A stretch of DNA of 64,000 nucleotides from Candidatus Woesebacteria bacterium GW2011_GWA1_39_21 (GCA_000993685.1 LBWP01000002.1:7993-71992); one strand, 5' to 3'; positions 13,657-59,376 are shown, counted from the first letter of the stretch. Translations and numbers: made by a program. Notes: generated by a model from the letters alone, not told the origin.

Positions 13657-13750
13657 TAAAACCACGGCATTTATGCCGTGAATGAGCAAATTTTCGCGAT
13701 GAACGAAGTTAACCGCAGGCGACAAAATACCACGGGCTTTAGCCCGTGGA
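13657..13750. repeat. dispersed hairpin-repeat element (AAAACC-hairpin-ATGA ... aatacca-hairpin)
   Basis: Sequence aaaaccacggcatttatgccgtgaatga is followed by cgacaaaataccacgggctttagcccgtgg. It is near-identical in architecture and partly in sequence to 49537-49618. Confidence 0.6.
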
Positions 13751-13767
13751 AATTTATTATGTGGTTT

Positions 13768-14538
13768 TTACCGCTTTCGCCTGATGAAGTTGCTTACTAC
13801 AAAAAGTGAGGCAGACGTAAGAACAACGGCAGGTCCTGACGCAATTCCTACAATTTTTGATATGGTGACGCCGATGACCATCGATGTTGCTCCAATTACG
13901 GCTGCGTAAAATTGAAACCCTTTAATATTTTTTGCGATGTTCTTGGCTGCCACTGCAGGAATGATTACAAGCGATCCTGTTAAAAGGGTACCGACGAATT
14001 TCACGCCGATAGCAACCACCAATCCGACTGCGAGTAGATAAAGAAGATTAATCTTAGAGACGTTGATTTTCTTTGATCTGGCCAATTCTTCTGAAATTAC
14101 CCCAAGAAGAAGTTCACTAGATATTTTTTTAATGACAACATAAATTGAGAGAGAGGTTGCAATTATGACCACACCATCAAGAAAGGAGATTTTTTCGAAA
14201 TTACCAAAAAGCGCCTCCAGAAGTTCGGGTTCCGGTGTAATTAAAATTCCGATTGCGAGGCTTGCAGTGAAAAAAATTCCAACCAAGGCCTCGGAATAAA
14301 TTTCAGTTTTTTCGCCTAAATACCAAACTCCAAGAATGGCGGCGCTTAAGGCAATAAATGCACCAAGCATGGGATTAATTCCAAGCATCAGTGCGATTGC
14401 CAAACCAGGAAGAGCAACGTGCGACAAAGCATCGCCAACGAGCGACATCCGCTTGATCACCATAAACGAACCCAAAAATCCCGAAGCGGCTCCGACGAGG
14501 GCTCCGACAGCTAGTGTAAATAAAAGGTTATTTTCCAT
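13768..14538 (-). CDS. znuB: metal (Zn/Mn) ABC transporter permease
   Basis: An ABC-3 family polytopic permease. It overlaps the start of the ATPase gene. Confidence 0.8.
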   Translation of the reverse strand: MENNLLFTLAVGALVGAASGFLGSFMVIKRMSLVGDALSHVALPGLAIALMLGINPMLGAFIALSAAILGVWYLGEKTEIYSEALVGIFFTASLAIGILITPEPELLEALFGNFEKISFLDGVVIIATSLSIYVVIKKISSELLLGVISEELARSKKINVSKINLLYLLAVGLVVAIGVKFVGTLLTGSLVIIPAVAAKNIAKNIKGFQFYAAVIGATSMVIGVTISKIVGIASGPAVVLTSASLFVVSNFIRRKR

Positions 14539-14540
14539 AT

Positions 14541-15281
14541 CTACTCATGTTTATGGTTGTGATTATGGTGTTGATAAAAACGAACATCTTCACCGTATAA
14601 TTTATTGATGCTTCGTTTGTCGATAGCAATGTGGGGTGGTCCCCAACAGACCATTTCTTTATTTAAACACAAAACGTTCGCTGCATACCGATAGACAATT
14701 TCAAGCTCGTGCGAGATAAAAATAATTGTCAAGTCTTTTTCCTTCTTTAGCCTGTCAATTAACACATAGACCGTTTCCTCGCTTGAGACATCAACCCCAC
14801 TTGTTGGCTCGTCAAAAAGTAGAACATTTGGATTACCAAGTAGTGCGAACGCAATTAGAACCCTCTGAAATTCACCCCCGGAGAGAACTCCTAACCTAAC
14901 TTTTAGTAGCCGTTTGCCTTTGTGAATCAGATGTTCGTCTTTAGTCTCAAACCCAACTTGAGAAAGTACAGATTCGATTTTGACTTGGTCTTTTTCTTTA
15001 AACTTAAGAAATTCCTCTACTGTTAGGGGGATGTCTTTACTGACAGTGAGTCGTTGTGGGACGTATCCAATTCTCGTGTCGTCTGCCCAGCTGACGGTGC
15101 CTTTGTATGGTAAGAGATTTAAAAGGCATTTAAATAAAACAGTTTTTCCGGCGCCATTGGGGCCAATAATTGCCAAGGTGTCGTCTCTTTTAACCTCGAA
15201 TGAAAGGTTGTCCAATATTTTATGGTTATTAAACTCTACCACAAGGTTTGATACCGTTAAGATATTATTTTCCATACGCAA
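14541..15281 (-). CDS. znuC: metal ABC transporter ATP-binding protein
   Basis: Walker A is GPNGAGKT. The ABC signature is LSGGEFQRV. Walker B is LLFDEPTSG. The C-terminal tail is His-rich (HHNHNHKHE). Confidence 0.85.
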   Translation of the reverse strand: MRMENNILTVSNLVVEFNNHKILDNLSFEVKRDDTLAIIGPNGAGKTVLFKCLLNLLPYKGTVSWADDTRIGYVPQRLTVSKDIPLTVEEFLKFKEKDQVKIESVLSQVGFETKDEHLIHKGKRLLKVRLGVLSGGEFQRVLIAFALLGNPNVLLFDEPTSGVDVSSEETVYVLIDRLKKEKDLTIIFISHELEIVYRYAANVLCLNKEMVCWGPPHIAIDKRSINKLYGEDVRFYQHHNHNHKHE

Positions 15282-15282
15282 A

Positions 15283-15711
15283 TCATTGGCAGTTTGGACA
15301 CAAGCCGAAAAATTCTAACGAATGATTTTTTACTTCGAAATTTGATTTACGTTTGACCTGGGCCAGTAATAGTTTCTCGTTTAGCGGTACATCCTCAACC
15401 GAACCGCAGTTGTTGCAAATAAGATGGTGGTGATGATCCGGACTGGCGAGCTCGTATTGGGCAGTGACACCATTAAAATGTGTTTTGTTGATAAGATTTA
15501 ACTGGGAAAAATACTCCAACGTTCGGTAGATCGTTGTTTTATCAACGGTTTCTTCTTTCTTCTCCAGTACGTCTTTTATTTCAGCTACACTTTGTGGATG
15601 CAGGTCGAGAGCTTCGAAGATGGAACATCTTTGTTTGGTTAGACGGTGTCCGTTTTGGGAAAGTAATTTTTTATTCATAATGTTAAATAGATTGTTGCAA
15701 ACCAGTTGCAA
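15283..15711 (-). CDS. zur: Fur-family metalloregulator (probable Zur)
   Basis: The Fur-fold HTH is present. Metal sites HHHHLICNNCG and CPNCQ are present. It is the first gene of the znuCB operon. The true start may be the internal MNKKLL (15678). Confidence 0.7.
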   Translation of the reverse strand: MQLVCNNLFNIMNKKLLSQNGHRLTKQRCSIFEALDLHPQSVAEIKDVLEKKEETVDKTTIYRTLEYFSQLNLINKTHFNGVTAQYELASPDHHHHLICNNCGSVEDVPLNEKLLLAQVKRKSNFEVKNHSLEFFGLCPNCQ

Positions 15712-24616: not shown

Positions 24617-24707
24617 GTTGAATTATTGAGGAAATCTCCGTGGATATAGAAGGTATCCGAAGAATAAACTTATAATAATTCTTAACTGATTTTCGGCAAT
24701 TAAAAAA

Positions 24708-24746
24708 CCGCGCAGCTTCATTTCGTGCGCGGGGTGGTTTATTTTG
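24708..24746 (+). terminator. rho-independent terminator
   Basis: Hairpin ccgcgca-gcttcatttcg-tgcgcgg is followed by ggtggtttatttt. It lies downstream of the 23993-24616 gene. Confidence 0.6.
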
Positions 24747-24836: not shown

Positions 24837-25277
24837 ATGCGATGTCCTTTTTGTAGAGCGGCGAATACACAAGTTTTGGAGTCGAGAACGGTTGACGATG
24901 GCAGGTCATTACGAAGAAGACGGGAATGCTTAAAATGTAAAAAGCGTTTTACGACCTACGAAAAAGTTGGGGGATCTGCACTTTGGGTTGTCAAAAAGGA
25001 TGGTAGACGCGAGCCCTTTGATAGAGAAAAAGTAAAAAGAGGAGTTTTGCGGGCGGTTGAAAAAAGACCGGTTTCGATGGACTTTGTTAACGATTTGGTG
25101 GACCGGGTCGAGCGAGAAATGATGCGCAAGGAAAAAGAGGAGGTCTCAAGTAAGGCAATCGGTAAATCAGTGCTTAAGCGACTGAAAAGAATAGATAAAG
25201 TAGCGTGGTTGCGATTTGCAAGCGTCTATTTGCAATTTGAGGATTTGGAAGATTTCGCCAAAGCAATTAAGGAATAA
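24837..25277 (+). CDS. nrdR: transcriptional repressor NrdR
   Basis: An N-terminal zinc ribbon is present (MRCPFCRAANTQVLESR...CLKCKKRFTTYE). An ATP-cone domain follows. Confidence 0.9.
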   Translation: MRCPFCRAANTQVLESRTVDDGRSLRRRRECLKCKKRFTTYEKVGGSALWVVKKDGRREPFDREKVKRGVLRAVEKRPVSMDFVNDLVDRVEREMMRKEKEEVSSKAIGKSVLKRLKRIDKVAWLRFASVYLQFEDLEDFAKAIKE

Positions 25278-25324
25278 ATTTACAGCAACAAAGTTAAGAT
25301 GTGGTTTCGTAAATTACAATACTT

Positions 25325-27733
25325 ATGAAGGCAACAGAGTTTGATTACACTACCAAAACGCAATTGTCAGGAATAAGACAGAAACTATTTCTTGATCGTT
25401 ATTCGTTAAAAAACGAGAATGGTGAGCCGATCGAAAAATACCCTGAACATATGTGGAAGCGAGTGGCAGAGGCTTTGGCGGCAGTTGAAAAAACTTCAAA
25501 ATTGCGAAAAGTATGGGCGGATAAGTTTTATACATCAATGTTGGAATTCAAACTTTGTCCGGCGGGAAGATTTTTGACTTCAGCTGGGACAGGTACTGAT
25601 ACGACGATGATCAACTGTTATGTTCTTCCAAATCCTGAAGACACAAGAACGGGAATTATCAAAACTTTAGAATATGTTACGGAAATTTCTGCAAGAGGTG
25701 GTGGGGTTGGCTTTAATCTTTCGTCGCTGCGTCCCAGGGGTTCCTATCTAAAATCTGTTAATGGGACATCGTCGGGTGCGGTCTCTTGGGCAAATCTCTA
25801 TTCTGTGGCGGCACACGACATTATTCAACAGGGTGGAACAAGGCGGGGAGCTTTGATGTTGATGCTTTGGGATTGGCACCCCGATGTTGAGGAATTTATT
25901 ACCGTTAAAAGGGAGCAGGGGAAAATTCTTGGCGCCAATTTAAGCGTTTGTGTTTCCGACGAATTTATGAAGGCGTTAAAGGAAGATAAAGATTGGGATC
26001 TAAAGTTTCCAGATACAGATTTTGAAAAGTATCGCAGTGACTGGCATGGTGACATTAAGGGTTGGGAAAAGAAAGGTTATCCGGTCAAAGTTTATAAAAC
26101 GATCAGGGCTGTTGAGCTTTGGAATTTAATCTGTGATTCCGCTTGGGCGTCGGCAGAGCCGGGTATTGTCTTTTTGGATTTAGGAAATAGGATGAATAAC
26201 ACTTGGTATTTTGAAGAAAACATTTCAACAAATCCCTGCGGTGAACAACACTTGCCCGCGTGGGGCGTTTGCAATTTAAGCTCAATCAATTTATCGACTT
26301 TGGTTAAAGACGGGACGTTTGATTTCGACGAGTTTGGAAAAGTTATAAGAGTCGGCGTCAGATTTTTAGATAATGCTGTTGATACGGAGAACTATTTATA
26401 TTCGGAAATTAAAGAAGTACAGGAGAAAGAAAGAAGAATTGGTTTGGGAACTATCGGGCTAGCAGACGCACTGATTAAAATGAAGATTCGTTACGGTTCG
26501 CAAGAGTCTCACGCCTTTATTGAAAAGACCTTTAAGATGCTTCGTGATGTCGCATACGAGGAATCGATTTCTTTGGCAAAAGAGAAGGGCTCCTTCCCAC
26601 AGTTTATCGCAAATAAGTTTTTGTACAGCGGTTTTATAAAAACTTTGCCGAAAAGCATCAAGGACGGGATCAAAAAGTGGGGGATAAGAAACGCTTTAGT
26701 TTTAACCGAGGCGCCGACAGGTAAAATTTCTCTTTTGGCGGGTGCGTCGTCAGGCATTGAACCTGTCTTTTCGTTTTCTTACACCCAAAAAGATCGTTTG
26801 GGCGAAAGAACAATGTATCATCCTTTGTATCAAGAATGGGTCGATAAACATCCGGATGAGAAAATTCCTGATTATTTTGTTACAGCAGACGATCTGTCGC
26901 CTGAAGAACATATTAACGTTCAAGCCTTAATTCAAAAATACACGGATTCGTCGATTAGTAAAACGGTGAACGCCCCAAAGACACACTCGGTTTCTGATGT
27001 TAAAAAACTCTACCTTTTAGCCTATGAGAAAGGGTGTAAAGGTATTTCCTATATGCGCGAGGGTTCGCGTGAGGGGACGCTTGTTCGAGGTAGTAGCGAG
27101 GCGAAAAAAGAAACTGAAGAAGCAAAGAAAACTGAAGAGCAAAAAGCCAGTGTTTGGGTTAGACCAATTAAAATATCTGGATCCACCTATAGGTTAAAGA
27201 CCCCTGTGGGAACAGCTTTTATTACTGTAAATCATGACGAAACAGACTCTCCTGTTGAGACTTTCATTAACATCGGACGCGCCGGAAGCGATGTCCAAGC
27301 AATGGCGGAGGCGCTGGGTCGCGTGATTTCAAAGTCGTTGAAAATGGGAAGTAATTTGACAGGTAAAGAGAGGGCGATTTTAATGATCGAACAACTTCAG
27401 GGAATTGGTGGTTCAAGAAGTGTTGGTTTTGGTGCCGAACGAATTCTTTCACTCCCCGATGCAATCGCCAAAGCACTTTCTTTAGATATGGGACTTTTGC
27501 CACAGAAGCAAATGGAGATTCCTGTTCAGGAAAAATTGTTAAGCAATGGCCACACTAATGGTGTAGTTCACACGAACGGAGAGGTTGCCATATCTGAAAG
27601 CGTTGAAGATTCTGGAGACCAACTGTCGTTTTTGGCGAAGCATGCCGACTTTTGCCCGTCGTGTGGAAATGCCACGCTCGTTCACGAGATGGGTTGTAAA
27701 ACTTGCCATGGGTGTGGCTATTCTGAATGTTGA
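25325..27733 (+). CDS. nrdJ: class II (adenosylcobalamin-dependent) ribonucleotide reductase, no ATP-cone
   Basis: The active-site motif is NPCGEQHLPAWGVCNLSSINL. A C-terminal CxxC...CxxC zinc ribbon is present (CPSCGN...CKTCHGCGYSEC). Confidence 0.85.
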   Translation: MKATEFDYTTKTQLSGIRQKLFLDRYSLKNENGEPIEKYPEHMWKRVAEALAAVEKTSKLRKVWADKFYTSMLEFKLCPAGRFLTSAGTGTDTTMINCYVLPNPEDTRTGIIKTLEYVTEISARGGGVGFNLSSLRPRGSYLKSVNGTSSGAVSWANLYSVAAHDIIQQGGTRRGALMLMLWDWHPDVEEFITVKREQGKILGANLSVCVSDEFMKALKEDKDWDLKFPDTDFEKYRSDWHGDIKGWEKKGYPVKVYKTIRAVELWNLICDSAWASAEPGIVFLDLGNRMNNTWYFEENISTNPCGEQHLPAWGVCNLSSINLSTLVKDGTFDFDEFGKVIRVGVRFLDNAVDTENYLYSEIKEVQEKERRIGLGTIGLADALIKMKIRYGSQESHAFIEKTFKMLRDVAYEESISLAKEKGSFPQFIANKFLYSGFIKTLPKSIKDGIKKWGIRNALVLTEAPTGKISLLAGASSGIEPVFSFSYTQKDRLGERTMYHPLYQEWVDKHPDEKIPDYFVTADDLSPEEHINVQALIQKYTDSSISKTVNAPKTHSVSDVKKLYLLAYEKGCKGISYMREGSREGTLVRGSSEAKKETEEAKKTEEQKASVWVRPIKISGSTYRLKTPVGTAFITVNHDETDSPVETFINIGRAGSDVQAMAEALGRVISKSLKMGSNLTGKERAILMIEQLQGIGGSRSVGFGAERILSLPDAIAKALSLDMGLLPQKQMEIPVQEKLLSNGHTNGVVHTNGEVAISESVEDSGDQLSFLAKHADFCPSCGNATLVHEMGCKTCHGCGYSEC

Positions 27734-27742
27734 TATTTAAAA

Positions 27743-30064: not shown

Positions 30065-30085
30065 CCGAATAAAACCAATCCTGTT

Positions 30086-32851: not shown

Positions 32852-33208
32852 ATGCCTGATGTGGAAAGAGAAAATGTTACTTCTGTACAGCCGTTGGTGA
32901 AAGAACGTCCGACAGACATGGAAATTCCACCGGAGTTGGAGCGTGGAGGAGTAGCTCAGGCGGTACCAAGTCAATTTAAAGGCCAGGTTAACGACGATTT
33001 CGGGAAACCCCTAATTCAGACACCACCAGCTTCGGCGGTAACAATTCAGGTTCCGGCTTCACAACAACAATTGGAAGGCTGGTCAAAAGGCGATCCTGAA
33101 AACGCTCTGACTTGGTTTGCGGTTTTTTGGATTCGATTGATTAAAAAGGCACTTCATTTTAGTTGGCGAATGGTTAAAAAAATTACAGGAGGTGAGCCAA
33201 ATGTATAG
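32852..33208 (+). CDS. hypothetical small protein with C-terminal hydrophobic helix
   Basis: The protein is Pro/Gln-rich and ends with a TM-like segment (LTWFAVFWIRLIKKAL). It overlaps the start of the ATPase gene. Confidence 0.3.
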   Translation: MPDVERENVTSVQPLVKERPTDMEIPPELERGGVAQAVPSQFKGQVNDDFGKPLIQTPPASAVTIQVPASQQQLEGWSKGDPENALTWFAVFWIRLIKKALHFSWRMVKKITGGEPNV

Positions 33209-35525: not shown

Positions 35526-35603
35526 TAGTTTTGTTTAAAAGACGGGTGGATACTTCGTGGAGAATGGGAAATTAGTTAGCTTCTTGGTATAATTACCTCA
35601 CTT

Positions 35604-35679
35604 GGCCTGGTAACTCAGTGGTTAGAGTGCCATTCTTATAAAATGGAAGTCGATGGTTCGAACCCATCCCAGGCCACCA
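35604..35679 (+). tRNA. tRNA-Ile (anticodon UAU), CCA encoded
   Basis: I hand-folded a cloverleaf. The acceptor pairs ggcctgg/ccaggcc. The D-stem pairs actc/gagt. The anticodon stem pairs ccatt/aatgg around loop cttataa, giving anticodon UAU at positions 34-36. The T-arm pairs gatgg/ccatc with loop ttcgaac. The 3' end is ACCA. Confidence 0.75.
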
Positions 35680-35725
35680 ATATTCTTACATGTCAAAACG
35701 AGGTTTTGTCATAAAGTCGATGTAC

Positions 35726-35756
35726 TTGGTTCGACTCCAAGCGGCTCCACCAAATT
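35726..35756 (+). other. orphan tRNA 3' fragment (T-arm plus 3' acceptor strand plus CCA; tRNA-Ala/tmRNA-like end GCUCCACCA)
   Basis: Sequence cttgg-ttcgact-ccaag-cggctcc-a-cca is present. No complementary 5' acceptor strand lies upstream. It is preceded by a 10-bp inverted repeat (atgtcaaaac-gag-gttttgtcat). Confidence 0.4.
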
Positions 35757-36022
35757 TTGATATGTCGAAGCTCTGCTTCGTCATAAAATCGAATTGGTCG
35801 TATCTATATAATCTTCAAGAAATATATAATGATTTAGTATTACCACCGATCGGATTTTTATTTTTTTGTAATATGGTTGGCATTTTGGGGAGTTTATAAT
35901 TTCTTTCTCTTGCCTAAAAAAATCTCTACAGAAAAATCACCTCGACTTTTGTCATTGACTTTTTATCTCTCACCCTAATTGACTTTTGTCTGTCTCGATT
36001 AATTTACACCAGAGAAGTTTCC

Positions 36023-36394: not shown

Positions 36395-36435
36395 TAAGAG
36401 GAGTTTGAGGAATTTATAATTTTGTTGATTGTCGA

Positions 36436-38575: not shown

Positions 38576-39013
38576 GGCCGCAATTATAACATTGGATCAA
38601 AAGCAGAACAAATTATTGGAAAACATTGAAGCGTTATTATTTCCGTTTATTGTTGCGGGGTCAGGAGTTGGACCTGATCTGGAAGATTATGCACCTTCTT
38701 GTGTTACCACAAGGGTAGGACTATATCATCATCCCGGCTTTAATCGGGAGTTTGGCGTGTAGTCTCTACGGAGTCCAAAATAAAATATTTTAATTTTAAA
38801 AAGGTTCCCTCGGTATTGTCCTGACATAATCAGGGTGTCCACCGATATAGCCAAATTCTCATTTATAATTACTCATAAATGGGCCCATTTCTACTAGCCT
38901 TCCGTGCAGCCGTACACTACCCCGCATGTCAACGAACAAACCATATTATATTTACTTTATACTGTGAAAGCAACATGGAATTGTACCTGCGTGAATAGTA
39001 TAATATTACTTGA

Positions 39014-40090: not shown

Positions 40091-40363
40091 ATGAAAGCCA
40101 TTAAACAGTTTGTTGAGGAATTAGTAAAGAATAAGGAGAGAGTACTTAAAAGAGAAATTTCAGATATGGAGGCACGGGTTATTCTGGCTGAAAGCGGGAA
40201 ATTTCCTGAGATGAATGAAGAGCTAAGACTAAGAGCAATAGCTTCGAGCGCCGAACATAGGAACAAAGGAACGCTTTTGGGAAGACAAAAATATATTTTA
40301 GATGGAGAAAAGCAGTTAAGGGCAATTATTTTGGGAAAAGAAAGAGATCGAGAGGGGGATTAA
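40091..40363 (+). CDS. hypothetical small protein
   Basis: The ORF encodes a charged alpha-helical protein. I recognise no family. Confidence 0.3.
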   Translation: MKAIKQFVEELVKNKERVLKREISDMEARVILAESGKFPEMNEELRLRAIASSAEHRNKGTLLGRQKYILDGEKQLRAIILGKERDREGD

Positions 40364-40593: not shown

Positions 40594-40711
40594 ATGGATC
40601 GACAAAACAAGGTGGCAACGTCTTTTAGCTGTTAGCAGTTGGAGTTTAGAAATTAGTTAGAAGGCCCTTGTTTGATCATCATATTTTGGTGGTTAAGCAA
40701 GGGCTTTTTAT

Positions 40712-48602: not shown

Positions 48603-49451
48603 ATGCCTGAGCTTCCTGAAGTTGAATCGATAAAAATACAACTTAATAAATTTCTTGTTGGTCATAGGGTTTCAGGTGTTGATGTTCGTTTCCCCAAAGC
48701 TTTCCAGGGTGATGAAAAAAGTTTAATCGGTGGAAAGGTTAAGCAGGCCAGACGGTTTGGTAAAGTGACCGTAATTGATTTTGACAACGGCTATTCGTTG
48801 GTAATTCACATAAAGCTAACTGGCCAATTAATTTACCGTGGTCCGAATTTGAAAACTCCACCAAAGCTTTCACCTAAAATTTTTGGCGGTTTAGACGGTA
48901 AACATACGGTGGTAATTTTTAGGCTAGACAGAGGGGGAAAACTATATTACAACGATTTTCGCAAATTTGGTTGGCTCAAAATTGTAAAAACAAAAGAGGT
49001 TGGGAACATAGATTTTATAAAGAAGTTAGGTCCAGAGCCACTTGGCAGCTTAACACACCCTAAATTTAAAGAAATTACAGGTTCGACAGGCAGGGCAATA
49101 AAAACGCTGATCATGGATCAGAGTAAGATGGCTGGGGTGGGAAATATTTATGCGAACGACGCGTTGTATCTGGCCAAAATTCATCCTGAAAGAAAAGCGA
49201 ATAGTTTGACAGAGGATGAAGTTAAAACCCTTTATGAAGCGGTTGAGAAGGTCTTAAGACGGGGTCTTAAATACGGAGGAGCAAGCGAACTTTCATTTGT
49301 AACCCCTGATGGTTCAGATGGAAAATACCAAGAGCACACTTTAATTTATGGGAAAACTGGCGAAAAATGCAAAAGATGTGGTGGTGTTATCAAAAAAAAT
49401 ACAGTCGGAGGTCGCGGAACTTACTTTTGCCCCTCTTGCCAGCCCGCATAA
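48603..49451 (+). CDS. mutM: formamidopyrimidine-DNA glycosylase
   Basis: The N-terminus is MPELPEVE. H2TH is present. A C-terminal zinc finger is present (CKRCGGVIKKNTVGGRGTYFCPSCQ). Confidence 0.9.
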   Translation: MPELPEVESIKIQLNKFLVGHRVSGVDVRFPKAFQGDEKSLIGGKVKQARRFGKVTVIDFDNGYSLVIHIKLTGQLIYRGPNLKTPPKLSPKIFGGLDGKHTVVIFRLDRGGKLYYNDFRKFGWLKIVKTKEVGNIDFIKKLGPEPLGSLTHPKFKEITGSTGRAIKTLIMDQSKMAGVGNIYANDALYLAKIHPERKANSLTEDEVKTLYEAVEKVLRRGLKYGGASELSFVTPDGSDGKYQEHTLIYGKTGEKCKRCGGVIKKNTVGGRGTYFCPSCQPA

Positions 49452-49536
49452 CTTTGCTTGGCATTGCCGACGGGCCAACGCTGACGCGTAAGCGCTACGA
49501 GTAGATCCACTTGCTAAAAATTATTGAATTCATCTG

Positions 49537-49618
49537 CGAAAACCACGGACTTTAGTCCGTGGATGAAGCAAGAATCCAATCTCGTCGACAAAATACCATG
49601 GGCTTTAGCCCGTGGTAG
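49537..49618. repeat. dispersed hairpin-repeat element overlapping recF start
   Basis: Sequence aaaaccacggactttagtccgtggATGAagc is followed by cgacaaaataccatgggctttagcccgtgg. It parallels 13657-13750. The first in-frame ATG of recF is the ATG of the ATGA motif. Confidence 0.6.
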
Positions 49619-50714
49619 TAATTTTACTCAGAAGTCGATATCTTTTTCAAAAGATGTCACTCTAATTTTGGGAAACAATGCTTCAGGAAAAACCAATATC
49701 TTGGAAGCGATTGTGTTTTTATCGACAGGGAAAAGTTTTAAGGCCAGGTTGGAGTCGGAAGTGATTACCTATCAAAAGGATGTATCGCGGATTAAAGGTA
49801 AAATCGACTCAGGAATCAATTTAGAGATTGTTATTACGAATGGTTCAGTAAGAGTAGGTGACAGTCCGTCCAGTCTAAAAAAAGCACAGCGTAAGAAGCT
49901 TTTGGTAAACGGTGTAGCGCGCCGACTGCTTGATTTTGCGGGAAATTTAAAGGTTGTAATTTTCGGACCTTGGGATATGGATTTGGTGACAGCTTCGCCT
50001 TCAGTTAGACGAAAATTTTTAGATTCCGTACTTGCCCAAGTGGATAGGGAATACCGCAGATCGTCTTTGATTTACGACAGGGGTATGCGACAAAGAAACA
50101 GACTCCTTTTGCGGATTCGCGATGAAGGGTTGTCTGCGTCACAACTGTTGTACTGGGATAAGCTTTTGATTAAGCACGGAAACTATATAACAAAACGGCG
50201 CGGTGATTTTATTGATTTTGTCAACGGCAGCAAAAGTGGTGGAACAAACTTATTATTGAATGACATTCAAAATGGAGAGAAAATGAATTTTTCTCTAGCC
50301 GGCAACTACCAACTGGAATACGACAGAAGCGAAATCTCCATTGGAAGATTAAAGCAATATGAACGAGAAGAGGTTGCCGCGGCAACAACTCTTGTCGGTC
50401 CGCACCGTGACGATTTTCTATTTAAGATTGGATTGCAAAAGACGAAGTTTGGCGACAGCGACCGCGACCTTGCGAAATACGGAAGCAGGGGAGAACAAAG
50501 AATGGGTATACTTTGGTTAAAGTTGGCCGAACTGTCTTTTATCAAACAACAAACGAACGAAAAACCACTGCTTTTGCTAGACGATATTTTTTCTGAACTG
50601 GACCACGAACACCGAAAAATTGTAACAGCTGTTTGTGAACAGCAGCAAACAATTGTAACAACAGCCGACCCGCATTACATTGAAGCTACGAAAGCAAAAG
50701 TAATTAGATTGTAA
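49563..50714 (+). CDS. recF: DNA replication/repair protein RecF
   Basis: Walker A is GNNASGKTNILEAI. The SMC-like signature and Walker B (LLLLDDIFSELD) are present. The start was chosen at ATG 49563; the track gives a TTG at 49524. Confidence 0.85.
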   Translation: MKQESNLVDKIPWALARGSNFTQKSISFSKDVTLILGNNASGKTNILEAIVFLSTGKSFKARLESEVITYQKDVSRIKGKIDSGINLEIVITNGSVRVGDSPSSLKKAQRKKLLVNGVARRLLDFAGNLKVVIFGPWDMDLVTASPSVRRKFLDSVLAQVDREYRRSSLIYDRGMRQRNRLLLRIRDEGLSASQLLYWDKLLIKHGNYITKRRGDFIDFVNGSKSGGTNLLLNDIQNGEKMNFSLAGNYQLEYDRSEISIGRLKQYEREEVAAATTLVGPHRDDFLFKIGLQKTKFGDSDRDLAKYGSRGEQRMGILWLKLAELSFIKQQTNEKPLLLLDDIFSELDHEHRKIVTAVCEQQQTIVTTADPHYIEATKAKVIRL

Positions 50715-52003: not shown

Positions 52004-53536
52004 TTACCCCACGTTAAAAGGAGAATTTTGCGCGTAAATTGCTTCGTGGAATGCAGGGCCGGTTCCGATGGCAACGATCGGCAGATTGGTAAGGTGTTCC
52101 AGCGTGGCGACGGCGGCCCTAAGTTGTCTTGGCGCGTCTTCGAAGGTGTTAAGTCCGGCCGTTGAAGTCTTCCAACCATCAAGTTTTAAGGTATTCATAC
52201 GTGTGCGTTCGTCGAGCATTCTTGGGTCGTCCGGGTCGTAGTCGGTTGTTGTATAACCGTCAGGGAAAACATATTCCACGCCAAAGCGGATTTCCGGTAA
52301 AGTGTCCACAGCGTCGACTTTGGCTAGGACTAAGGCATTAAGGTTGTAAGTTTCAATAGCTGCACAAATTTCAGGTACCGATAGCCAGTAATATTTACGA
52401 CGTCTGCCCGATACTGTACCTGCTTCAGGTCTACCTCTTTCTTCAGTCCGTAAATAGAGTGGCTCTTGATGTTCTTGCGAAAGCGGCGAGTGAATGACAT
52501 GGTTTCCGACGCAGGTGGGAACCAGTTTGAGAACTCCAATTCTCCACCCCAGTCTATTTTCTGATGTCCTGTAACGTCTGGTGAAAGACCCCGGTCCGCT
52601 GTCGGTTGAGGTAACGGATCCGCGAAAACCGGTATCGAGACTTATTCCGAAAGCTTGTGCTCCTTCAAAGATCAAATTTCCATTTTCTTTTAGGGCTCTC
52701 GTTACAACAGGATATGTATTTCCAATATAAGGACCTAATATTTTTACCCATTCCTTGAATTTTTCCAACGTTTCGTTTGGGTCGAGGTTAAACTCGGAAG
52801 GAAGAGAAGTCAAAATTCTGTTTTGCCTTTCCACCTCGTCCTGAACAAGCCTTTCCGTTTCCTGCTTCGTTTTGAGAAGACAGTCCATCCGAAGGCCCAC
52901 TCTGGCCGTGTAGTCGGATGCGGCAGGTCCGACACCGCTTTTTGTAGTTCCGATGGCATCCTTCCCGCGCGATTTCTCTTCAGCGATATCTCTCTGAATG
53001 TGGGCGTCCCAAGCTAAAAAAGCCGCTCCGTCAATCATAATGTTTTTGGGAGTAGGGTTATAACCGAGCCTTTTTAGTATTTGCATTTCATTAATTACAA
53101 GCTCAGGTACAACCAGTTCACCCCGGCCGGCAATTTTCACCCAACCGTCGTCAATTGAAGTGGGTAGCATACGGAAACCAACTTCTTCACTTTCGTTTTC
53201 AGGCCGGATCATATGGCCCGCTCCTGGACCACCTGCACGTATCGCGACACCGCCCGCTGGTCTTAAATGGGAATACCGGTAACTCCAAGTACCTTTGCTT
53301 TCGTCACCTTTTTGTGCACCAAAGATGCCTATCGCATTAGTGTTGGGGACAACTCTTTGCTGCCCGGCAAATCTTATTGATAAATCGTTGGCTATTAGGT
53401 GCTTAGGGGGATTTTCCCAAATCTCATTCAAATCGGGATCAACATCAACCGTTCTGGTTAGCGATTCCACCCCCATGAAGACAATCTGATTATTATGTTT
53501 TGTAGGATGAATGTCAATATTGTTTTTTCCGCACAA
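52004..53536 (-). CDS. purA: adenylosuccinate synthetase family protein (divergent, ~60-aa N-terminal extension)
   Basis: The P-loop-like motif is GAQKGDESKGT. Other PurA motifs are present: GGPGAGHM, GTTKSGVGPA, FEGAQA, GRRRKYYWL, KVDAVD and GTGP. Confidence 0.7.
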   Translation of the reverse strand: MCGKNNIDIHPTKHNNQIVFMGVESLTRTVDVDPDLNEIWENPPKHLIANDLSIRFAGQQRVVPNTNAIGIFGAQKGDESKGTWSYRYSHLRPAGGVAIRAGGPGAGHMIRPENESEEVGFRMLPTSIDDGWVKIAGRGELVVPELVINEMQILKRLGYNPTPKNIMIDGAAFLAWDAHIQRDIAEEKSRGKDAIGTTKSGVGPAASDYTARVGLRMDCLLKTKQETERLVQDEVERQNRILTSLPSEFNLDPNETLEKFKEWVKILGPYIGNTYPVVTRALKENGNLIFEGAQAFGISLDTGFRGSVTSTDSGPGSFTRRYRTSENRLGWRIGVLKLVPTCVGNHVIHSPLSQEHQEPLYLRTEERGRPEAGTVSGRRRKYYWLSVPEICAAIETYNLNALVLAKVDAVDTLPEIRFGVEYVFPDGYTTTDYDPDDPRMLDERTRMNTLKLDGWKTSTAGLNTFEDAPRQLRAAVATLEHLTNLPIVAIGTGPAFHEAIYAQNSPFNVG

Positions 53537-53561: not shown

Positions 53562-54626
53562 ATGTTTTCTCCAAAATTTGCAATTACAAATAATATCTTA
53601 AAAAACATCGGTGCGATTGAGGCCGCTAAGGAAGTCATTGAAAACGCCCCCTTGGTGCCTTTGTATGAAAAAAGGTTTAAGAGTGAAGCGTTATTGAAAA
53701 CTGTTCACCACGGAACCCACATTGAAGGAAATGACTTGAACATTGATCAGACGAGACAGGTTTTAGAAGGGGAAGAAATATTTGCGCGTGATCGAGATAT
53801 CCAAGAAGTTATCAATTACCGAAGAGTTATTGATCTATTGGATGAGTTGAAAGATAAACGTGGAGGTTACGATTTGGGAATGCTGACAGAAATTCATAAA
53901 GAAACTGTTGGGAAAGTCGTCCCTCCGGAAAAATGTGGAGTTGTTCGAAAAAGTGAAGTAGTAATCAAGGAGGAGGGAACAGGCAAAATCGTTTTTCAAC
54001 CTCCGCCATATCACCAGGTAATGAGTCTTTTGGAAGAGTTTTTTTCCTGGTTAAATGACCCATCTTCTTTGGAGTATCACTCAATATTGAAGGCGGGAAT
54101 TGTCCATTATATTTTAGTGTCAATCCATCCTTTTGTTGAAGGAAACGGTAGAACCGTCCGCGCCTTTTCGATTTTGGTATTAATGCGGGAGAATTATGAC
54201 ATTAAAAGGTTCTTTTCACTCGAAGAGCACTTCGACTCTGACCCGTCAAGTTATTATGACGCCTTTTCCAAAACGGACGCACTTGTCGGTGGAGTTTTCG
54301 AAAAAAATCTCACTGGTTGGCTGGAATATTTTACGCAGGTTGTTGCGATTGAATTAACAAAGATCAAAGAAAGAATCAGGAAACTTTCTGTTGACTCAAG
54401 ACTTAAGGGGATAATCGGTTCTCAAGTGGCGTTGACCGAAAGACAAATGAAACTGATTGAACACATGGGGGAGATGGGGTATGTTGGAATGTCGGAGCTT
54501 AAAAAACTGTTTCCGATGGTTTCCGAAGATACAATTCTTCGCGACATGAATTATCTCATTGATAAAAAGATTATTAAAAAAGAGGGAAAGACGAAGGCGG
54601 CTAGGTATGTCATGGTGAGCAAATAA
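53562..54626 (+). CDS. Fic/DOC family protein with C-terminal wHTH
   Basis: The Fic motif HPFVEGNGRTVRAF is present. Confidence 0.85.
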   Translation: MFSPKFAITNNILKNIGAIEAAKEVIENAPLVPLYEKRFKSEALLKTVHHGTHIEGNDLNIDQTRQVLEGEEIFARDRDIQEVINYRRVIDLLDELKDKRGGYDLGMLTEIHKETVGKVVPPEKCGVVRKSEVVIKEEGTGKIVFQPPPYHQVMSLLEEFFSWLNDPSSLEYHSILKAGIVHYILVSIHPFVEGNGRTVRAFSILVLMRENYDIKRFFSLEEHFDSDPSSYYDAFSKTDALVGGVFEKNLTGWLEYFTQVVAIELTKIKERIRKLSVDSRLKGIIGSQVALTERQMKLIEHMGEMGYVGMSELKKLFPMVSEDTILRDMNYLIDKKIIKKEGKTKAARYVMVSK

Positions 54627-54639
54627 ATCGTTTCTGAAA

Positions 54640-54690
54640 TGGCAAGTTATAACAGCTTTCAAGAAGACCCCGATTTAATCGGGGATGAAT
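54640..54690. repeat. hairpin-repeat element (ttataacagctttcaagaa ... ccccgatttaatcggggATGAA)
   Basis: It shares a 19-nt 5' arm with 54931-54980 and the AAACC-hairpin-ATGAA architecture with 13657, 49545 and 59345. Confidence 0.55.
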
Positions 54691-54725
54691 AGTGTTTTAA
54701 GATTTACGTTCGATTTTCATAAATT

Positions 54726-54929
54726 ATGAGTCCAAGTGATCCACAGTTTTTATATCTTGTTTTGGTTTTGCCGGCGTTGTTTGGAATAACGATGCTTGGC
54801 GATGGGATCAATAAACTGGCTCATAAAAATAGTGGCGGTTATATAACTCTGGTTTTTGGAATTTTGTTTTTTTTGCTCGTTGTTTTTGGATATATCTTCT
54901 TTTCAACCTACCTTTTGGGGTCAGGTTAA
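54726..54929 (+). CDS. small membrane protein
   Basis: Two TM helices are predicted. It is flanked by the two ttataacagctttcaagaa repeats. Confidence 0.3.
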   Translation: MSPSDPQFLYLVLVLPALFGITMLGDGINKLAHKNSGGYITLVFGILFFLLVVFGYIFFSTYLLGSG

Positions 54930-54930
54930 G

Positions 54931-54980
54931 GTTTATAACAGCTTTCAAGAAAACCCCACCCTTAAGGGCGGGGGTGACCC
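54931..54980. repeat. hairpin-repeat element (second copy)
   Basis: Sequence tttataacagctttcaagaaaaccccacccttaagggcgggggtga. Confidence 0.55.
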
Positions 54981-55192
54981 GCCTGCTTAGCTGCGCAAGC
55001 TGCGGGCTGGATTGAACTCTGAAAATGCGTATGAAGAGTCAAGCTTTGCTTTTGATAAAGTCTTAAGCTTTGCTTATATATCATCCCCCTTGGGGAAACC
55101 CCCGCTTTTTTAAGCGGGGAGAATGTCATAAAAACCAGCCACAATAGTTTATTGGAGATTAGACAAAAAGATTAGTAGAATGATTTTTAATT

Positions 55193-56950
55193 TTGTATAA
55201 TGCGGATAATATGACCTTCTTTGAACTGACTAAATATTTGGAAAAGTTGGAAAAAACTTCTTCACGGCTTGAAATAACACAAATCCTTGCCGACCTTTTT
55301 AAGAAGTCAAAAGTCGACGAGATTGATCGAATTGTCTATCTCACTCTGGGAAGCCTCGCCCCGAATTATCGGGGAATGGTCTTTAATATCGCCGATAAAA
55401 TAATGCTTCAGATTATTGCTAAGGCATGTGGTATTGATGCCGGAAGGGTTCGGGAAAGTTACAAAAAGGAAGGCGATTTGGGCGTTGTAACAGAAAAATT
55501 GTTGGAGAGCGGCAAACAGAAAAACTTCAGCAGTAAGATAACAGTTGGTGAAATTTATGAGGAACTCTTTCAGATTGCCCAGGATGAAGGCGGGGGGAGC
55601 GTAGATCGAAAAATTGATCAGATGGCACGGCTATTGGGAAAGGTCGATCCGCTTTCCGCAAGGTATTTGGTTAGAATTCCTGTTGGCAAACTGCGTTTGG
55701 GGTTTTCCGACAAAACGGTTATAGATGCGCTCTCGTGGATGGAAACGGGGAGTAAAGTCAAGAATAAAATTATTTCGGAAGCATACAACATCCTGCCGGA
55801 CGTTGGTCTTTTGGCAAAAAAAGTCAGGCGGGAAGGTATCGATAAAGCCTGTGAGAATGTTTTACCTATTGTTGGAATCCCCGTTCTTCCGATGCTTGCA
55901 CAGCGACTAAAAAGTCCTACAGAAATGATTGAGAAAATGGGGAAAGTATATGTCGAGCCGAAATTTGATGGCTTGAGAGTTCTTGTACATTTTCAGAAGT
56001 CTAAAGATAAATCTGGACACGATTTGGTCAAAGCTTTTACGCGAAATTCAAATGACGTGACGGAAATGTTTCCCGAGATTCTTCGTGTTGGGGAGTTTAT
56101 CAACGCTGGTGCGGTGATTTTGGACAGCGAGGCCGTGGGAATGGACCCGCAAATGAAGTTACTTGCCGATTTTCAAACAACCATGAAAAGAAGAAGAGTC
56201 CACCAAATCGATTTAACGGCAAAAGAAATTCCGCTTCGTTTCCAGATTTTTGATGTTTTATATAAGGACGGGGAAAGTTTGATGGATCGCCCGTACAAAG
56301 AACGGAGAAATATTCTCGAAAAACTATTTAATGATAACAAACTTTTTGTCGTAGATGAAAAGGTAGAAACGTCGGATCCCGAGGTTATCAACGAGCAATA
56401 TCGAAAAAGAATTAAAGAGGGTTTGGAAGGTGTGATTGTTAAAAAGATTGACGCAAAATATGTCGCCGGAAGAACTGGTTGGCGTTGGGTTAAAATGAAG
56501 CAGGAAGAACAGTCTCAAGGAAAGCTTTCAGATACCGTAGACGCTGTGGTTATGGGCTATACACTCGGAAAAGGGAAAAGAGCGGGCTTTGGGGTCGGTC
56601 AATTTTTGGTTGGAGTGGTTGAACCGTCGGGAAATATTAAAACCTTAACGAAGATTGGTACGGGTTTGACCGACGAACAATTTAAAGAGCTGGCAAAAAG
56701 ACTTACGAAACTAAAAATTGGTCAAAAGCCTAAAGAATATGAAGCGCATAAAAATTACACACCGGATTTTTGGGTCGTGCCAAAGCTCGTTGTTGAACTT
56801 GCCGGTGATGACTTAACAAAAAGTCCGACGCACACGAGCGGCTACGCGCTTCGTTTTCCCAGACTGGTAAACTTCAGAGATGACAAGTCGGTTTCACAAG
56901 CAACAACGGTGGGGGAAGTGGTGAAGCTCTTTAAACTTCAGAGAAAATAG
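55193..56950 (+). CDS. lig: ATP-dependent DNA ligase (archaeal/eukaryotic type)
   Basis: Motif I is VEPKFDGLRV (KxDGxR). The OB domain and adenylation motifs are present. The 585-aa length fits. Confidence 0.85.
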   Translation: MYNADNMTFFELTKYLEKLEKTSSRLEITQILADLFKKSKVDEIDRIVYLTLGSLAPNYRGMVFNIADKIMLQIIAKACGIDAGRVRESYKKEGDLGVVTEKLLESGKQKNFSSKITVGEIYEELFQIAQDEGGGSVDRKIDQMARLLGKVDPLSARYLVRIPVGKLRLGFSDKTVIDALSWMETGSKVKNKIISEAYNILPDVGLLAKKVRREGIDKACENVLPIVGIPVLPMLAQRLKSPTEMIEKMGKVYVEPKFDGLRVLVHFQKSKDKSGHDLVKAFTRNSNDVTEMFPEILRVGEFINAGAVILDSEAVGMDPQMKLLADFQTTMKRRRVHQIDLTAKEIPLRFQIFDVLYKDGESLMDRPYKERRNILEKLFNDNKLFVVDEKVETSDPEVINEQYRKRIKEGLEGVIVKKIDAKYVAGRTGWRWVKMKQEEQSQGKLSDTVDAVVMGYTLGKGKRAGFGVGQFLVGVVEPSGNIKTLTKIGTGLTDEQFKELAKRLTKLKIGQKPKEYEAHKNYTPDFWVVPKLVVELAGDDLTKSPTHTSGYALRFPRLVNFRDDKSVSQATTVGEVVKLFKLQRK

Positions 56951-58019: not shown

Positions 58020-58106
58020 TCCCGGTTGGATAGCACAAAGTGCATCCAACGGGATCCCGTGAGATAGCTTGAAAAGCTTATCTCACTGGGAGGGGGTGAG
58101 TAAGTT

Positions 58107-58442
58107 ATGGCTGATGATAAAAAAGGTGTAACAGGTCTTCCCAAAAATACGGCAGGGGCACTGTCTTATGTTTTAGGGCCCTTATCAGGAGTGGTTTTTC
58201 TGATTCTCGAGAAGGATCCGTTTGTTAAATTTCACGCAATGCAGTCGATTGTTGTTTTTGGAGTGATCTTTATATTGCAGTGGGCTTTTGCAATAACAAT
58301 TTTCCTTGCTCCTTTAAGCGGTCTTTTAGCAATATTGGCTTTTGTGGCGTGGCTAATGCTAATTTATAAAGCGTGGAGAGGTGAAGAGTGGGAAGTTCCG
58401 CTTTTGGGGAAATACGCAAGAATATTTGTTAAGAAGGTCTAA
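58107..58442 (+). CDS. small membrane protein (DUF4870-like)
   Basis: The sequence ALSYVLGPLSGVVFLILEKDPFVKFHAMQS is followed by TM helices. Confidence 0.4.
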   Translation: MADDKKGVTGLPKNTAGALSYVLGPLSGVVFLILEKDPFVKFHAMQSIVVFGVIFILQWAFAITIFLAPLSGLLAILAFVAWLMLIYKAWRGEEWEVPLLGKYARIFVKKV

Positions 58443-58595
58443 ACGGTTTGCTGATGGTGAGTAAGGTGGGACGGGTCATTCGCCGGATATTGTTTTGTCG
58501 GTTTTGAAGTAAGCACTAAGACTGACAGCTGATTATTTTTAAGAATACTGCATAAACCTCTGAAAGAATCTGACTGCTTAAAAAGTCGGGAAAAG

Positions 58596-59267
58596 ATGAT
58601 TAAAACCATCAGGGATGAGTATGGTTTAGTCTCCCCGCAAGTGCTTGGTGTAATGTTGAAAGTTCCACGGCACGAATTTGTCCCAAAAGGGTTTCAAAAA
58701 GTTGCTTACGAAGACAAGCCGATCGAAATTGGTTTTGGGCAGACGATGAGCCAACCTTACACTGTTGCAATGATGACACATCTTGCAACAGAAATTCCAA
58801 ATACCAAATACCAGTTTTCAAACAGATTGCAAAATACAAATAGAACGAGTGGTAAGATAAAAAGACGTAAAGTTTTGGAAATTGGAACAGGGTCGGGTTA
58901 CCAGGCGGCGCTTCTGTCTTATTTTTTTGACGAGGTTTATACAATAGAAATCATTCCCCAATTGTCGGAATTTGGTAGAAACAATCTTTTCCGGTTGGGG
59001 TATAAAAATGTTTTCGTCAGAGAGGGAAGCGGAGAATACGGATGGAAAGAAAAATCTCCTTTTGACGCAATAATAATTACCGCCGCACTTGAGAAAGACC
59101 TACCGCCAGTTCTGAAAACCCAACTTGTTAAAGGTGGAATTTTAGTGGCCCCGATTGGACCGCGGTATTCGCAGGTTATGACCAGATTTGCGAGGTTAAA
59201 AAACGGGAAATTTAAAAAGGAGGAATTCCAGAAGTTTGTTTTTGTACCTTTTGTAAGAAACGAATAA
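58596..59267 (+). CDS. pcm: protein-L-isoaspartate O-methyltransferase
   Basis: The motif MSQPYTVAMM is present. SAM motif I is LEIGTGSGYQAALL. A ~25-aa insertion (IPNTKYQFSNRLQNTNRTSGKIKRR) sits between them. Confidence 0.85.
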   Translation: MIKTIRDEYGLVSPQVLGVMLKVPRHEFVPKGFQKVAYEDKPIEIGFGQTMSQPYTVAMMTHLATEIPNTKYQFSNRLQNTNRTSGKIKRRKVLEIGTGSGYQAALLSYFFDEVYTIEIIPQLSEFGRNNLFRLGYKNVFVREGSGEYGWKEKSPFDAIIITAALEKDLPPVLKTQLVKGGILVAPIGPRYSQVMTRFARLKNGKFKKEEFQKFVFVPFVRNE

Positions 59268-59344
59268 AAATCACCGATATCGTAGGGTGAAAATTATTTA
59301 AATCGGGGATTAACCTGACGTTTCAATTTTATTCAAACTGCGCC

Positions 59345-59376
59345 AAAACCGTGGACTCTTAGTACACGGATGAAAG
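59345..59376. repeat. hairpin-repeat element
   Basis: Sequence aaaaccgtggactcttagtacacggATGAAagg shares the AAAACC-hairpin-ATGAA architecture. Confidence 0.5.

Follow-up and report, generated by a model that had tools for sequence, protein, structure and literature searches.

Hairpin repeats in a Woesebacteria contig as probable non-autonomous derivatives of IS200/IS605 insertion sequences

The stretch of 64,000 nucleotides (nt) of Candidatus Woesebacteria bacterium GW2011_GWA1_39_21 that we analysed, hereafter the window, carries five hairpin-bearing repeats (E1 to E5), one of which adjoins recF. These repeats are very probably non-autonomous derivatives of insertion sequences (IS) of the IS200/IS605 family, devoid of open reading frames (ORFs), akin to palindrome-associated transposable elements (PATEs) or miniature inverted-repeat transposable elements (MITEs), and dispersed in the genome of this lineage of the Candidate Phyla Radiation (CPR; Patescibacteria). 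A preliminary description of the sequence had noticed the five loci and proposed that they form a MITE-like family or one of repetitive extragenic palindromic sequences (REPs), a set of bidirectional terminators, or a translational-control module providing the start codon of recF. We found all five loci where it had placed them and confirmed their hairpins.

The terms used below follow Meers et al., who describe subterminal hairpins on the top strand of these IS, a transposon-adjacent motif (TAM), and DNA guides that pair with the TAM and with the transposon-encoded motif (TEM) (PMC10055086). We call the two extremities of an element the left end (LE) and the right end (RE).

Results

The repeats share a layout and a strand

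At the five loci, the plus strand carries TTAT, a spacer of 16-18 nt with AAAA at its 3' end, a GC-rich hairpin, and (G)ATGA (Table 1). The preliminary description had given AAAACC and ATGA at every locus, which needs correction at 54664, where the sequence is AAGACC, and at 54974, where it is GTGA. We scanned the window for an A-rich pentamer guide, a hairpin with at most one mismatch, and [AG]TGA. This resulted in 6 matches, whereas 100 dinucleotide shuffles of the sequence gave 0.57 on average and never more than 3. The 5 true matches are all on the plus strand and all have a TTAT 16-18 nt 5' of the foot of the hairpin, for 0.04 expected, a criterion picked after inspection of the data. The bare pattern AAAACC-N18-30-ATGA, with no requirement for a hairpin, was found 6 times for 5.9 expected. 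Hence, the signal resides in the hairpin together with its flanks, and the concern that such words are no more frequent than chance holds for the bare pattern but not for the pattern with a hairpin.

Some of the loci have further modules in common. A second module is identical at 29 of 30 positions between 13720-13749 and 49586-49615 (none expected by chance), in agreement with the preliminary description, and a third, degenerate copy lies at 59455-59483. The pair of loci at 54.6-55.0 kb has an additional 24-nt module in common at the 5' side. E1, E2, and E5 have hairpins at both ends, on the plus strand and in direct orientation, and have no terminal inverted repeats. A profile search of the window revealed no copies beyond those listed.

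Table 1. Elements, their parts, and associated features in the window.
Feature	Coordinates	Strand	Description
E1	13645..13757	+	113-nt ORF-less element, probable IS200/IS605-type miniature
E1 target	13641-13644	+	TTAT, just outside the element
E1 LE hairpin	13663-13680	+	CACGGCA/TGCCGTG, then AATGA
E1 RE hairpin	13730-13749	+	guide AAATA 5'; terminal TTTAT 13753-13757
Unassigned hairpin	24702..24742	+	AAAAAACC-GCGCAGC…GTGCGCGG-GGTGGTTTAT
E2	49525..49619	+	99-nt element of the commonest subfamily, minus its last 4 nt (TTAT)
E2 target	49521-49524	+	TTAT
E2 LE hairpin	49543-49562	+	CCACGGAC/GTCCGTGG, then ATGAAG
E2 RE hairpin	49596-49615	+	then TAGT; deletion junction 49619/49620
Chimeric recF ORF	49563..50714	+	first 19 codons (MKQESNLVDKIPWALARGS) from E2; native sequence resumes at NFTQKS
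E4	54651..54720	+	left-end-only remnant related to E5
E4 target	54647-54650	+	TTAT
E4 LE hairpin	54668-54684	+	CCCCGAT/ATCGGGG, then ATGAA
E5	54937..55129	+	193-nt element of a second subfamily
E5 target	54933-54936	+	TTAT
E5 LE hairpin	54954-54973	+	CCCCACCC/GGGCGGGG, one mismatch
E5 RE hairpin	55100-55119	+	GAAA 5'; element end …GAGAATGTCAT; internal hairpin also present
E3	59333..59483	+	151-nt diverged element
E3 target	59329-59332	+	TTAT
E3 LE hairpin	59349-59369	+	CCGTGGACT/AGTACACGG, one mismatch; then ATGAAAGGAGG
E3 RE hairpin	59460-59473	+	decayed; tail GGTAGTTTAT ends at 59483

The elements have sharp borders in unrelated contexts

A scan of metagenomes with the right-end pattern returned 67 loci. 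Among these data, the 99-nt element of E2 type occurs in at least 15 unrelated contexts. The alignment of the 15 contexts is invariant or nearly so from TTAT to …GGTAGTTTAT, and both flanks are unrelated: conservation begins right after TTAT and ends at …GTTTAT. The preliminary description had raised the question of target-site duplications, and there are none at these copies. Such homology, with sharp borders at unlinked sites, indicates a common origin and not convergence, in a family that was copied recently. Copies of E1 and E5 type were also found in other contexts, and we recognised three subfamilies of ORF-less elements. In four metagenomic loci (L171 5703-5842, L200 2148-2287, L173 ~1075-1117, and L181), we observed head-to-tail arrays of PATEs, or nested copies in which one type of element is inserted exactly 3' of the terminal TTTAT or TTTAC of another, as is expected when the TEM resembles the TAM. 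Homologous two-hairpin elements with different stems are also present in other CPR genomes, namely Woesebacteria GW2011_GWA1_38_8, Woesebacteria RIFCSPLOWO2_01_FULL_39_23, WWE3, Daviesbacteria, and Harrisonbacteria.

The copies of the window differ in their degree of preservation. E2 is matched by the family profile with E=2.4e-29 (nhmmer), and its intact counterpart is at positions 9849-9947 of L001, a contig near-identical to the window. E1 (E=6.7e-21) has 99 of 114 positions in common with a copy located elsewhere (L150/L186) and has a decayed middle hairpin between its LE and RE hairpins. It lies between two minus-strand genes, encoding an ABC-3 permease and a class II aminoacyl-tRNA synthetase (aaRS). 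The gap between these genes, measured from gene coordinates, is 156 nt in the window and in 8 of the 8 contigs of the same population that were returned, and on the coordinates of these 8 contigs E1 appears to be fixed in the population. E5 is identical at 178 of 194 positions to a copy in another context (L143). Internal deletions have given shorter forms of it with unchanged ends, 104 and 135 nt long, in L181 and L189. E4 has its 5' part in common with E5 (AACAGCTTTCAAGAA); it has no RE hairpin, and its right border (…TTTTCAT) is uncertain.

E3 is diverged. Its assignment rests on its architecture and on an RE tail identical to that of E2. A convergent gene on the minus strand (59480-59776) takes its stop codon from the terminal TTA of E3. 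This stop codon would read alike before and after the insertion, because TEM and TAM are alike. Directly 3' of the LE hairpin of E3 (59372-59428), we observed AAAGGAGGG-N9-ATG, a strong Shine-Dalgarno sequence with an ATG that opens a 9-codon ORF (MVLPAHHLK); this may be a remnant of the Shine-Dalgarno sequence and 5' end of a deleted tnpA.

An unassigned hairpin, described earlier as a terminator at 24708 beginning with AAAACC, is in fact preceded by AAAAAACC. It has no LE upstream and no match to the family profile, and could be an ordinary terminator or else what is left of an element reduced to a right-end-like hairpin. Two further stretches caught our attention next to E2. Positions 9966-9990 of L001, 5' of the -10 box of the intact recF (GTATACAGCTTCAAAA), resemble the 5' part of the LE of E4 and E5 (TATAACAGCTTTCAAGAAAA, window 54648-54671), and the left flank of E2 (CCACTTGCTAAAA) is similar to sequence inside the left end of E1. 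Both may be older decayed insertions.

The ends match those of IS200/IS605 insertion sequences

We searched species-representative genomes with the pattern AAAA-N1-3-CCAYGGNNTTTANNCCGTG. Among the matches listed, there are many unrelated terminator-like hairpins and a recurrent motif of Clostridia, TTAT-18/19 nt-AAAA-CCCAYGGTC-TTTA-GACCGTGGG-ATGAATGG. In two of these loci (L067 and L068), a full-length TnpB gene lies 3' of the motif. The L068 product matches the Pfam profiles OrfB_IS605 (2.4e-28) and Cas12f1-like_TNB, and the L067 protein is an 85.6% identical tblastn match to it (Pfam was run on the L068 product). The flanks of the Clostridia copies differ up to TTAT, and the sequence is conserved immediately 3' of it. 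At the other extremity, four copies align through a second hairpin and GGTAGTTCAC, then diverge. This matches the right end of the window elements, where the hairpin is followed by GGTAGTTTAT and the overall layout is AAATA, hairpin, (T/A)A(G/A)TTTAT, and border. As a side observation, in contigs of Clostridia metagenome-assembled genomes from the gut (L041, L058, L061, L073, L095, L115, and others) the left end of the TnpB-IS lies within tens of bases of the contig ends, indicating that this multicopy IS is a frequent cause of assembly breaks.

The right ends are also found next to transposase genes. In L157 and L159, a gene for a Y1 transposase is bordered on one side by an LE with the layout described above and on the other by the RE hairpin CCACGGGTTTTAACCCGTGG, followed by AAATTTAC. 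The L157 product matches Y1_Tnp in Pfam (4.7e-31), and L159 is a 79% identical tblastn match. The PATEs of this sister family correspond to elements of the L157/L159 type from which tnpA was deleted. In L153, the 3' end of tnpA abuts the RE hairpin of E1 (CCACGGGCTTTAGCCCGTGG, from which E2 differs at one base), followed by TAGTTTAC.

These comparisons also bear on the ATG that follows the left hairpin. In L157 it shares the reading frame of tnpA, and some gene callers start the gene there (154-aa versus 142-aa forms of the protein). The ATGAA after the LE hairpin is also kept in TnpB-only elements in which no ORF follows, and judging from this conservation it is probably part of the left-end recognition region. 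Such a position in the left end explains why an ATG was available to the truncated recF described below.

Guides track target motifs and stems covary

At distinct right ends, the last base of the RE guide and the last base of the TEM are concordant in 57 out of 58 cases (A/T in 28, G/C in 29, and 1 exception), in a data set that spans two families, a structure that inflates the Fisher statistic. In the sister family, which shares the RE hairpin, the LE guide tracks the TAM through all four bases in 20 of 22 cases (TTAA/AATT 10, TTAT/AATA 5, TTAC/AATG 4, TTAG/AATC 1), with 2 exceptions. In the family of the window, the LE guide AAAA fits TTAT at 3 of 4 positions, with A·A at the third as in IS608, and in the guide variants AAAT and AAAC the last base does not track the invariant TTAT, so that the register is unsettled.

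The preliminary description had noted that the stems differ and yet stay complementary, and such compensatory changes are present. Among 28 variants of the LE hairpin, 6 of the 8 stem pairs changed on both sides (40 cells); this set was pre-selected for pairing, and the percentage of paired positions is accordingly not an independent measure, whereas the diversity of the stems is. The intact E2 folds as single-stranded DNA (ssDNA) into two hairpins (z=-4.7). An outer helix around the first hairpin (TTCAT…ATGAA or TTGCT…AGCAA) was considered and rejected, being promising in two copies but not conserved across the family.

The elements favour one strand

The window has a GC content of ~40% and a GC skew that is positive throughout, such that the plus strand is the G-rich strand over all 64 kb. 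The active strand of the elements is on the G-rich strand in 5 of the 5 window copies and in 15 of 18 copies of the family in other loci of at least 3 kb, although GC skew is a proxy for the direction of replication and some loci are possibly not independent. With this proxy, the G-rich strand corresponds to the lagging-strand template. This orientation bias agrees with the published bias towards the lagging-strand template, which is expected for single-strand transposition.

A deletion specific to this assembly fuses E2 to recF

The gene neighbourhood of recF consists of genes for a 5'-3' exonuclease, a glycosyltransferase, and Fpg/MutM, followed by recF, and dnaA and dnaN are not adjacent. 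Contigs near-identical to the window come from groundwater metagenomes. The preliminary description took the ATG at 49563 as the start of recF. This is indeed the first in-frame ATG, with the second hairpin translated, but in this assembly only. When L001, L003, and L007 are aligned with the window, the sole difference is a 93-bp block that is absent between 49619 and 49620, and BLAST against the ten contigs L001-L010 shows the same 93-bp break in all of them. The missing block contains the last 4 nt of E2, a T-rich tail, a TATAAT box, the ATG of recF, and 12 codons. In the near-identical contigs the element is in the spacer between fpg and recF, 46 nt upstream of a recF start with the canonical N-terminus MAIEGITLSNFR, and recF has its own TATAAT and ATG downstream of the element in L001, L003, and L007. 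The ORF of the window therefore has neither the native promoter, nor the ATG, nor the 12 codons that encode MAIEGITLSNFR. The deletion starts within E2, 4 nt before its right end, and fused the element to codon 13 of recF, giving an in-frame chimera that is opened by the ATG of the left-end hairpin.

Homologues of RecF point in the same direction. Those with names belong to Woesebacteria or Patescibacteria, and of the 120 best ones, 118 open directly with the canonical β1 strand (e.g., MAIEGITLSNFRNFTQ), including one that is 99% identical (P0001). The remaining two (P0092 and P0112) have the canonical N-terminus after an extension of 5-7 residues. The repeat is found at the N-terminus of none of the 120. 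Orthologues thus conserve the N-terminus without any repeat, and the idea that the repeat supplies the native start codon of recF is refuted. An exact look-up in a public gene index recorded neither of the two recF ORF versions of the window. In a relative whose RecF is 74% identical (L011), the fpg-recF spacer has 56 nt and no element. E4 is likewise absent from the orthologous spacer of this relative, which has no hairpins around the gene for a small membrane protein between Fic and ligase.

The window has a second deletion of this kind, of 263 bp between 41984 and 41985 (L001 2046-2308), a block present in five near-identical contigs. It comprises the end of a class I aaRS gene (tRNA-synt_1b), a spacer with a promoter, and the start of a gene with a tRNA_bind domain. 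Both deletions truncate genes and are specific to this assembly, and they may be either real alleles or errors of assembly. There is no consistent pattern of microhomology or TAM-like motifs at the two deletions. We also observed smaller differences between contigs: ~68 nt at 40155-40217 are present in the window and L002 and not in L001, and ~140 nt of the window (~52068-52210) are not in L010.

Discussion

A model for the origin of the repeats

The model that we favour follows that of IS608 and ISGst. An element starts immediately 3' of its TAM (TTAT/TTTAT), with a left end made of 16-18 nt ending in an A-rich guide, a GC-rich hairpin, and (G)ATGAAG. An intact right end consists of a second hairpin, preceded by the guide AAATA and followed by a short tail that reaches the TTTAT of the element itself, the TEM; both hairpins are on the top strand. 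A Y1 HUH transposase (TnpA), provided in trans, would bind both hairpins in ssDNA and find the cleavage sites by base contacts between the guides and the TAM or TEM. The top strand would then be excised as a circle and pasted 3' of another TTAT on the lagging-strand template, with no duplication of the target. Selection would act on the hairpin in ssDNA and not on its sequence, which would account for compensatory changes in the stems. The link with recF is secondary, arising from a 93-bp deletion that took the last 4 nt of the element along with the promoter, the ATG, and the first 12 codons of the gene. In the main subfamily TEM and TAM are identical (TTTAT), unlike those of the relatives characterised so far, and this identity permits head-to-tail self-insertion, which is observed.

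The identity of TEM and TAM invites a bolder proposal, which we regard as improbable: TnpA, or a TnpB/ωRNA nuclease, would accept the right junction of the element as a proper substrate, the 93-bp deletion would be the footprint of breakage associated with the element, and relics would remodel adjacent genes.

Several results weigh against the derivation from IS200/IS605 elements, or limit what can be drawn from the data. We found neither tnpA nor tnpB in the window, i.e., in 64 kb, nor in any of the CPR loci examined, using Pfam on the ORFs of the window and tblastn with the TnpB of L068 and the TnpA of L157, and no autonomous element with full ends of E2 type. A search for TnpA homologues that could reveal whether Woesebacteria have the enzyme mostly returned short contigs and was uninformative; one match was labelled Phycisphaerales. 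No empty site was found for any copy of the window, and an exact-match search of metagenomes with the sequence predicted for the empty site of E2 gave no match. Within the population no polymorphism of E1 or E2 was seen: E2 is in every same-population contig aligned, and the spacer with E1 has the same length in 8 of 8. E3 is degenerate, with no match to the family profile, and so is E4, with a weak match (E=0.061) restricted to the LE part. To these points must be added the limits on the guide and stem covariation mentioned above.

Alternative explanations

The repeats could be small RNA genes, e.g., PATE-borne ωRNA guides for a TnpB encoded elsewhere, with selection at the level of the RNA. 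PATEs often encode ωRNAs (PMC10055086). In IS of TnpB type the right end overlaps the ωRNA scaffold, and in TnpB-carrying IS the sequence upstream of the RE is conserved. Against this stand the absence of tnpB from the window and from the CPR loci examined, and the fact that the autonomous elements with the most similar right ends contain tnpA and no tnpB. The scaffold of a TnpB ωRNA is seemingly longer than 99-113 nt, and E1 and E2 seem short for it. Rfam 15 at the gathering threshold gave no match in the elements across the whole window. At E<=10 no family was found beyond chance-level matches in 49440-49640 and 54600-55200, with E1 and E3 covered by the gathering-threshold scan, and no family fits at 16 related loci. 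We consider this explanation quite unlikely. Other motifs were tried as well, namely a K-turn or box C/D-like GAUGA, a hammerhead core (GAAAC…CUGAUGA), an integron attC, and a CRISPR mini-array. The order and spacing of their conserved parts do not fit, and since the match to IS ends explains every conserved position, we dropped these readings.

It is very unlikely that the repeats are REPs, or bacterial interspersed mosaic elements (BIMEs), served by a domesticated REP-associated tyrosine transposase (RAYT, TnpA_REP), i.e., chromosome structures maintained by the host instead of miniatures derived from IS. A REP is a short, lone palindrome with a GTAG guide, and REPs are commonly arranged as inverted pairs. 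The window has no inverted REP pairs, its guides are AAAA and AAATA, and the left and right ends of its elements differ and are directly oriented, with the TAM outside and the TEM inside. In autonomous copies, tnpA or tnpB lies between these same ends, and insertion is head-to-tail at TEMs. This outweighs the observations that no transposase lies in the window, that one TnpA homologue of the sister family is labelled "REP-associated tyrosine transposase" at its source, and that REPs too are described as intergenic and as resembling the subterminal hairpins of IS200/IS605 (PMC3333891). The REP/MITE-like family of the preliminary description thus stands as a family of IS-derived, PATE-like miniatures with LE and RE hairpins in direct orientation, and not as REP/BIME pairs.

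Ordinary intrinsic terminators, possibly bidirectional, that end the transcription of neighbouring genes and are alike only through the form common to all terminators, are a highly improbable explanation. All copies are intergenic, RE hairpins have T-rich tails 3' and A-tracts 5', several hairpins are recognised by a simple terminator scan, either on a single strand or on both, and the LE hairpin of IS200 is a documented bidirectional terminator (PMC4513863). However, near-identity over 99 nt with sharp TTAT/TTTAT borders in 15 unrelated contexts is not expected of terminators, the LE hairpins have no T-tract on the plus strand even though three of them follow plus-strand genes, and the orthologous spacers of L011 do without hairpins. 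In the simple scan, RE hairpins fit on the plus strand and LE hairpins only on the minus strand. Some incidental termination is plausible from this analysis and would best be seen as a by-product or an exaptation. As a primary function, the bidirectional termination put forward earlier does not account for unlinked copies that share ~100 nt.

The probability is close to nil that the repeats are leader modules, in which the hairpin and its ATG would give RecF its start and N-terminus and control other downstream genes. The window does show the motif ATG as the first in-frame ATG of recF with a translated second hairpin, and the LE ATG of autonomous relatives is in frame with tnpA. Yet these features of recF follow from the 93-bp deletion, and the canonical opening of 118 of the 120 RecF homologues, none of which has the repeat, argues against such a role. 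The other copies precede stop codons or genes on the opposite strand.

Comparison with known systems

With the derivation from IS200/IS605 elements as the favoured reading, the closest counterparts are two sets of ORF-less elements. In Haloquadratum, PATEs are ORF-less mini-IS of the IS200/IS605 family (PMC3119063), and Geobacillus stearothermophilus has ORF-less, PATE-like copies of ISGst elements, with TAM TTTAT and TEM TTCAC in ISGst2 (PMC10055086). The window elements resemble them in lacking an ORF, in having LE and RE hairpins on one strand, in the TAM TTTAT of ISGst2, in a TEM similar to the TAM, and in the covariation of guides and motifs. They are also multicopy and intergenic, have no target duplication, and occur in head-to-tail copies. 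They differ in their host, a CPR bacterium with a reduced genome, and in having no cognate tnpA or tnpB in the available window sequence. The TAM and TEM of ISGst2 are two bases apart, whereas those of the main subfamily of the window are identical.

IS608 of Helicobacter pylori similarly inserts 3' of a tetranucleotide, each position of which pairs with a guide located 5' of the foot of the hairpin (TTAC/AAAG, against TTAT/AAAA here), has an RE border a few nt past the hairpin, and is biased towards the lagging-strand template. Unlike the window elements, it carries tnpA and tnpB, and its motifs and hairpin sequences are different. The distance that is 16-18 nt here is 19 nt in IS608. The TnpB-only, IS1341-like elements of Lachnospiraceae/Clostridia (L067, L068) share their RE tail (GGTAGTT…) with the window elements and come very close to them in the core of the LE (AAAACC-CACGGnC-TTTA-GnCCGTGG-GATGAA). 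In contrast to the window elements, they are ~1.5 kb long, encode TnpB, have a conserved region downstream of tnpB, have TTCAC as TEM, and come from an unrelated phylum. The REP/BIME-RAYT systems share intergenic hairpins related to the ends of IS200/IS605, but REPs are tied to a single-copy RAYT gene, of which there is none in the window, and their inverted pairs and GTAG are not seen here.

Other features of the window

A few other structures of the window are of interest in themselves. A GC-rich hairpin at 7113-7133, 3' of a sigma-70 gene, has a downstream A-tract, has no T-tract of the usual kind on either side, and is outside the family. A hairpin of 24 bp at 40658-40710 (TAGAAGGCCCTTGTTTGATCATCA…), with perfect or G-U pairs and T-rich 3' sequence, is far longer than the other hairpins. 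On the minus strand, at 38640-38945, a tRNA-like gene contains a match to the Rfam group I intron (38697-38905, 75 bits). Once joined, the exon halves around it (GCGGGGTAGTGTACGGCTGCACGGAAGGCT and CATAATCTTCCAGATCAGGTCCAACTCCTGACCCCGCA) would form a tRNA whose anticodon is CAU; this tRNA was not called by ARAGORN. The gene for a tRNA-Ile with a rare anticodon, TAT (35604-35679), has on one side that of a TrwB/TraG-like coupling-protein ATPase (33192-35525) and on the other that of a tyrosine recombinase, on the minus strand (36436-37299), and the region 33192-37299 may be an element integrated at the tRNA gene. Finally, 24837-32227 encodes NrdR and then three consecutive paralogues of the ribonucleotide-reductase large subunit (802, 773, and 713 aa), each with the barrel domain of these enzymes.

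Implications

A structurally conserved repeat family of CPR bacteria is in all likelihood explained by the relics of a well-understood type of single-strand transposon. The start of the recF ORF in this window results from a deletion specific to the assembly or the strain, and annotation should not take it as native. The copies found in metagenomes provide an unusually clean natural table of covariation between guides and targets, involving all four bases, and thereby independent support for guide pairing. If relics did take part in the breakage next to recF, they would be actively remodelling adjacent genes in a minimal genome instead of being inert. With copies of near-identical sequence, three subfamilies, and insertions in at least 15 contexts, miniatures of IS200/IS605 type have very probably been active in Woesebacteria, which is relevant to the question of how much mobile DNA reduced genomes tolerate.

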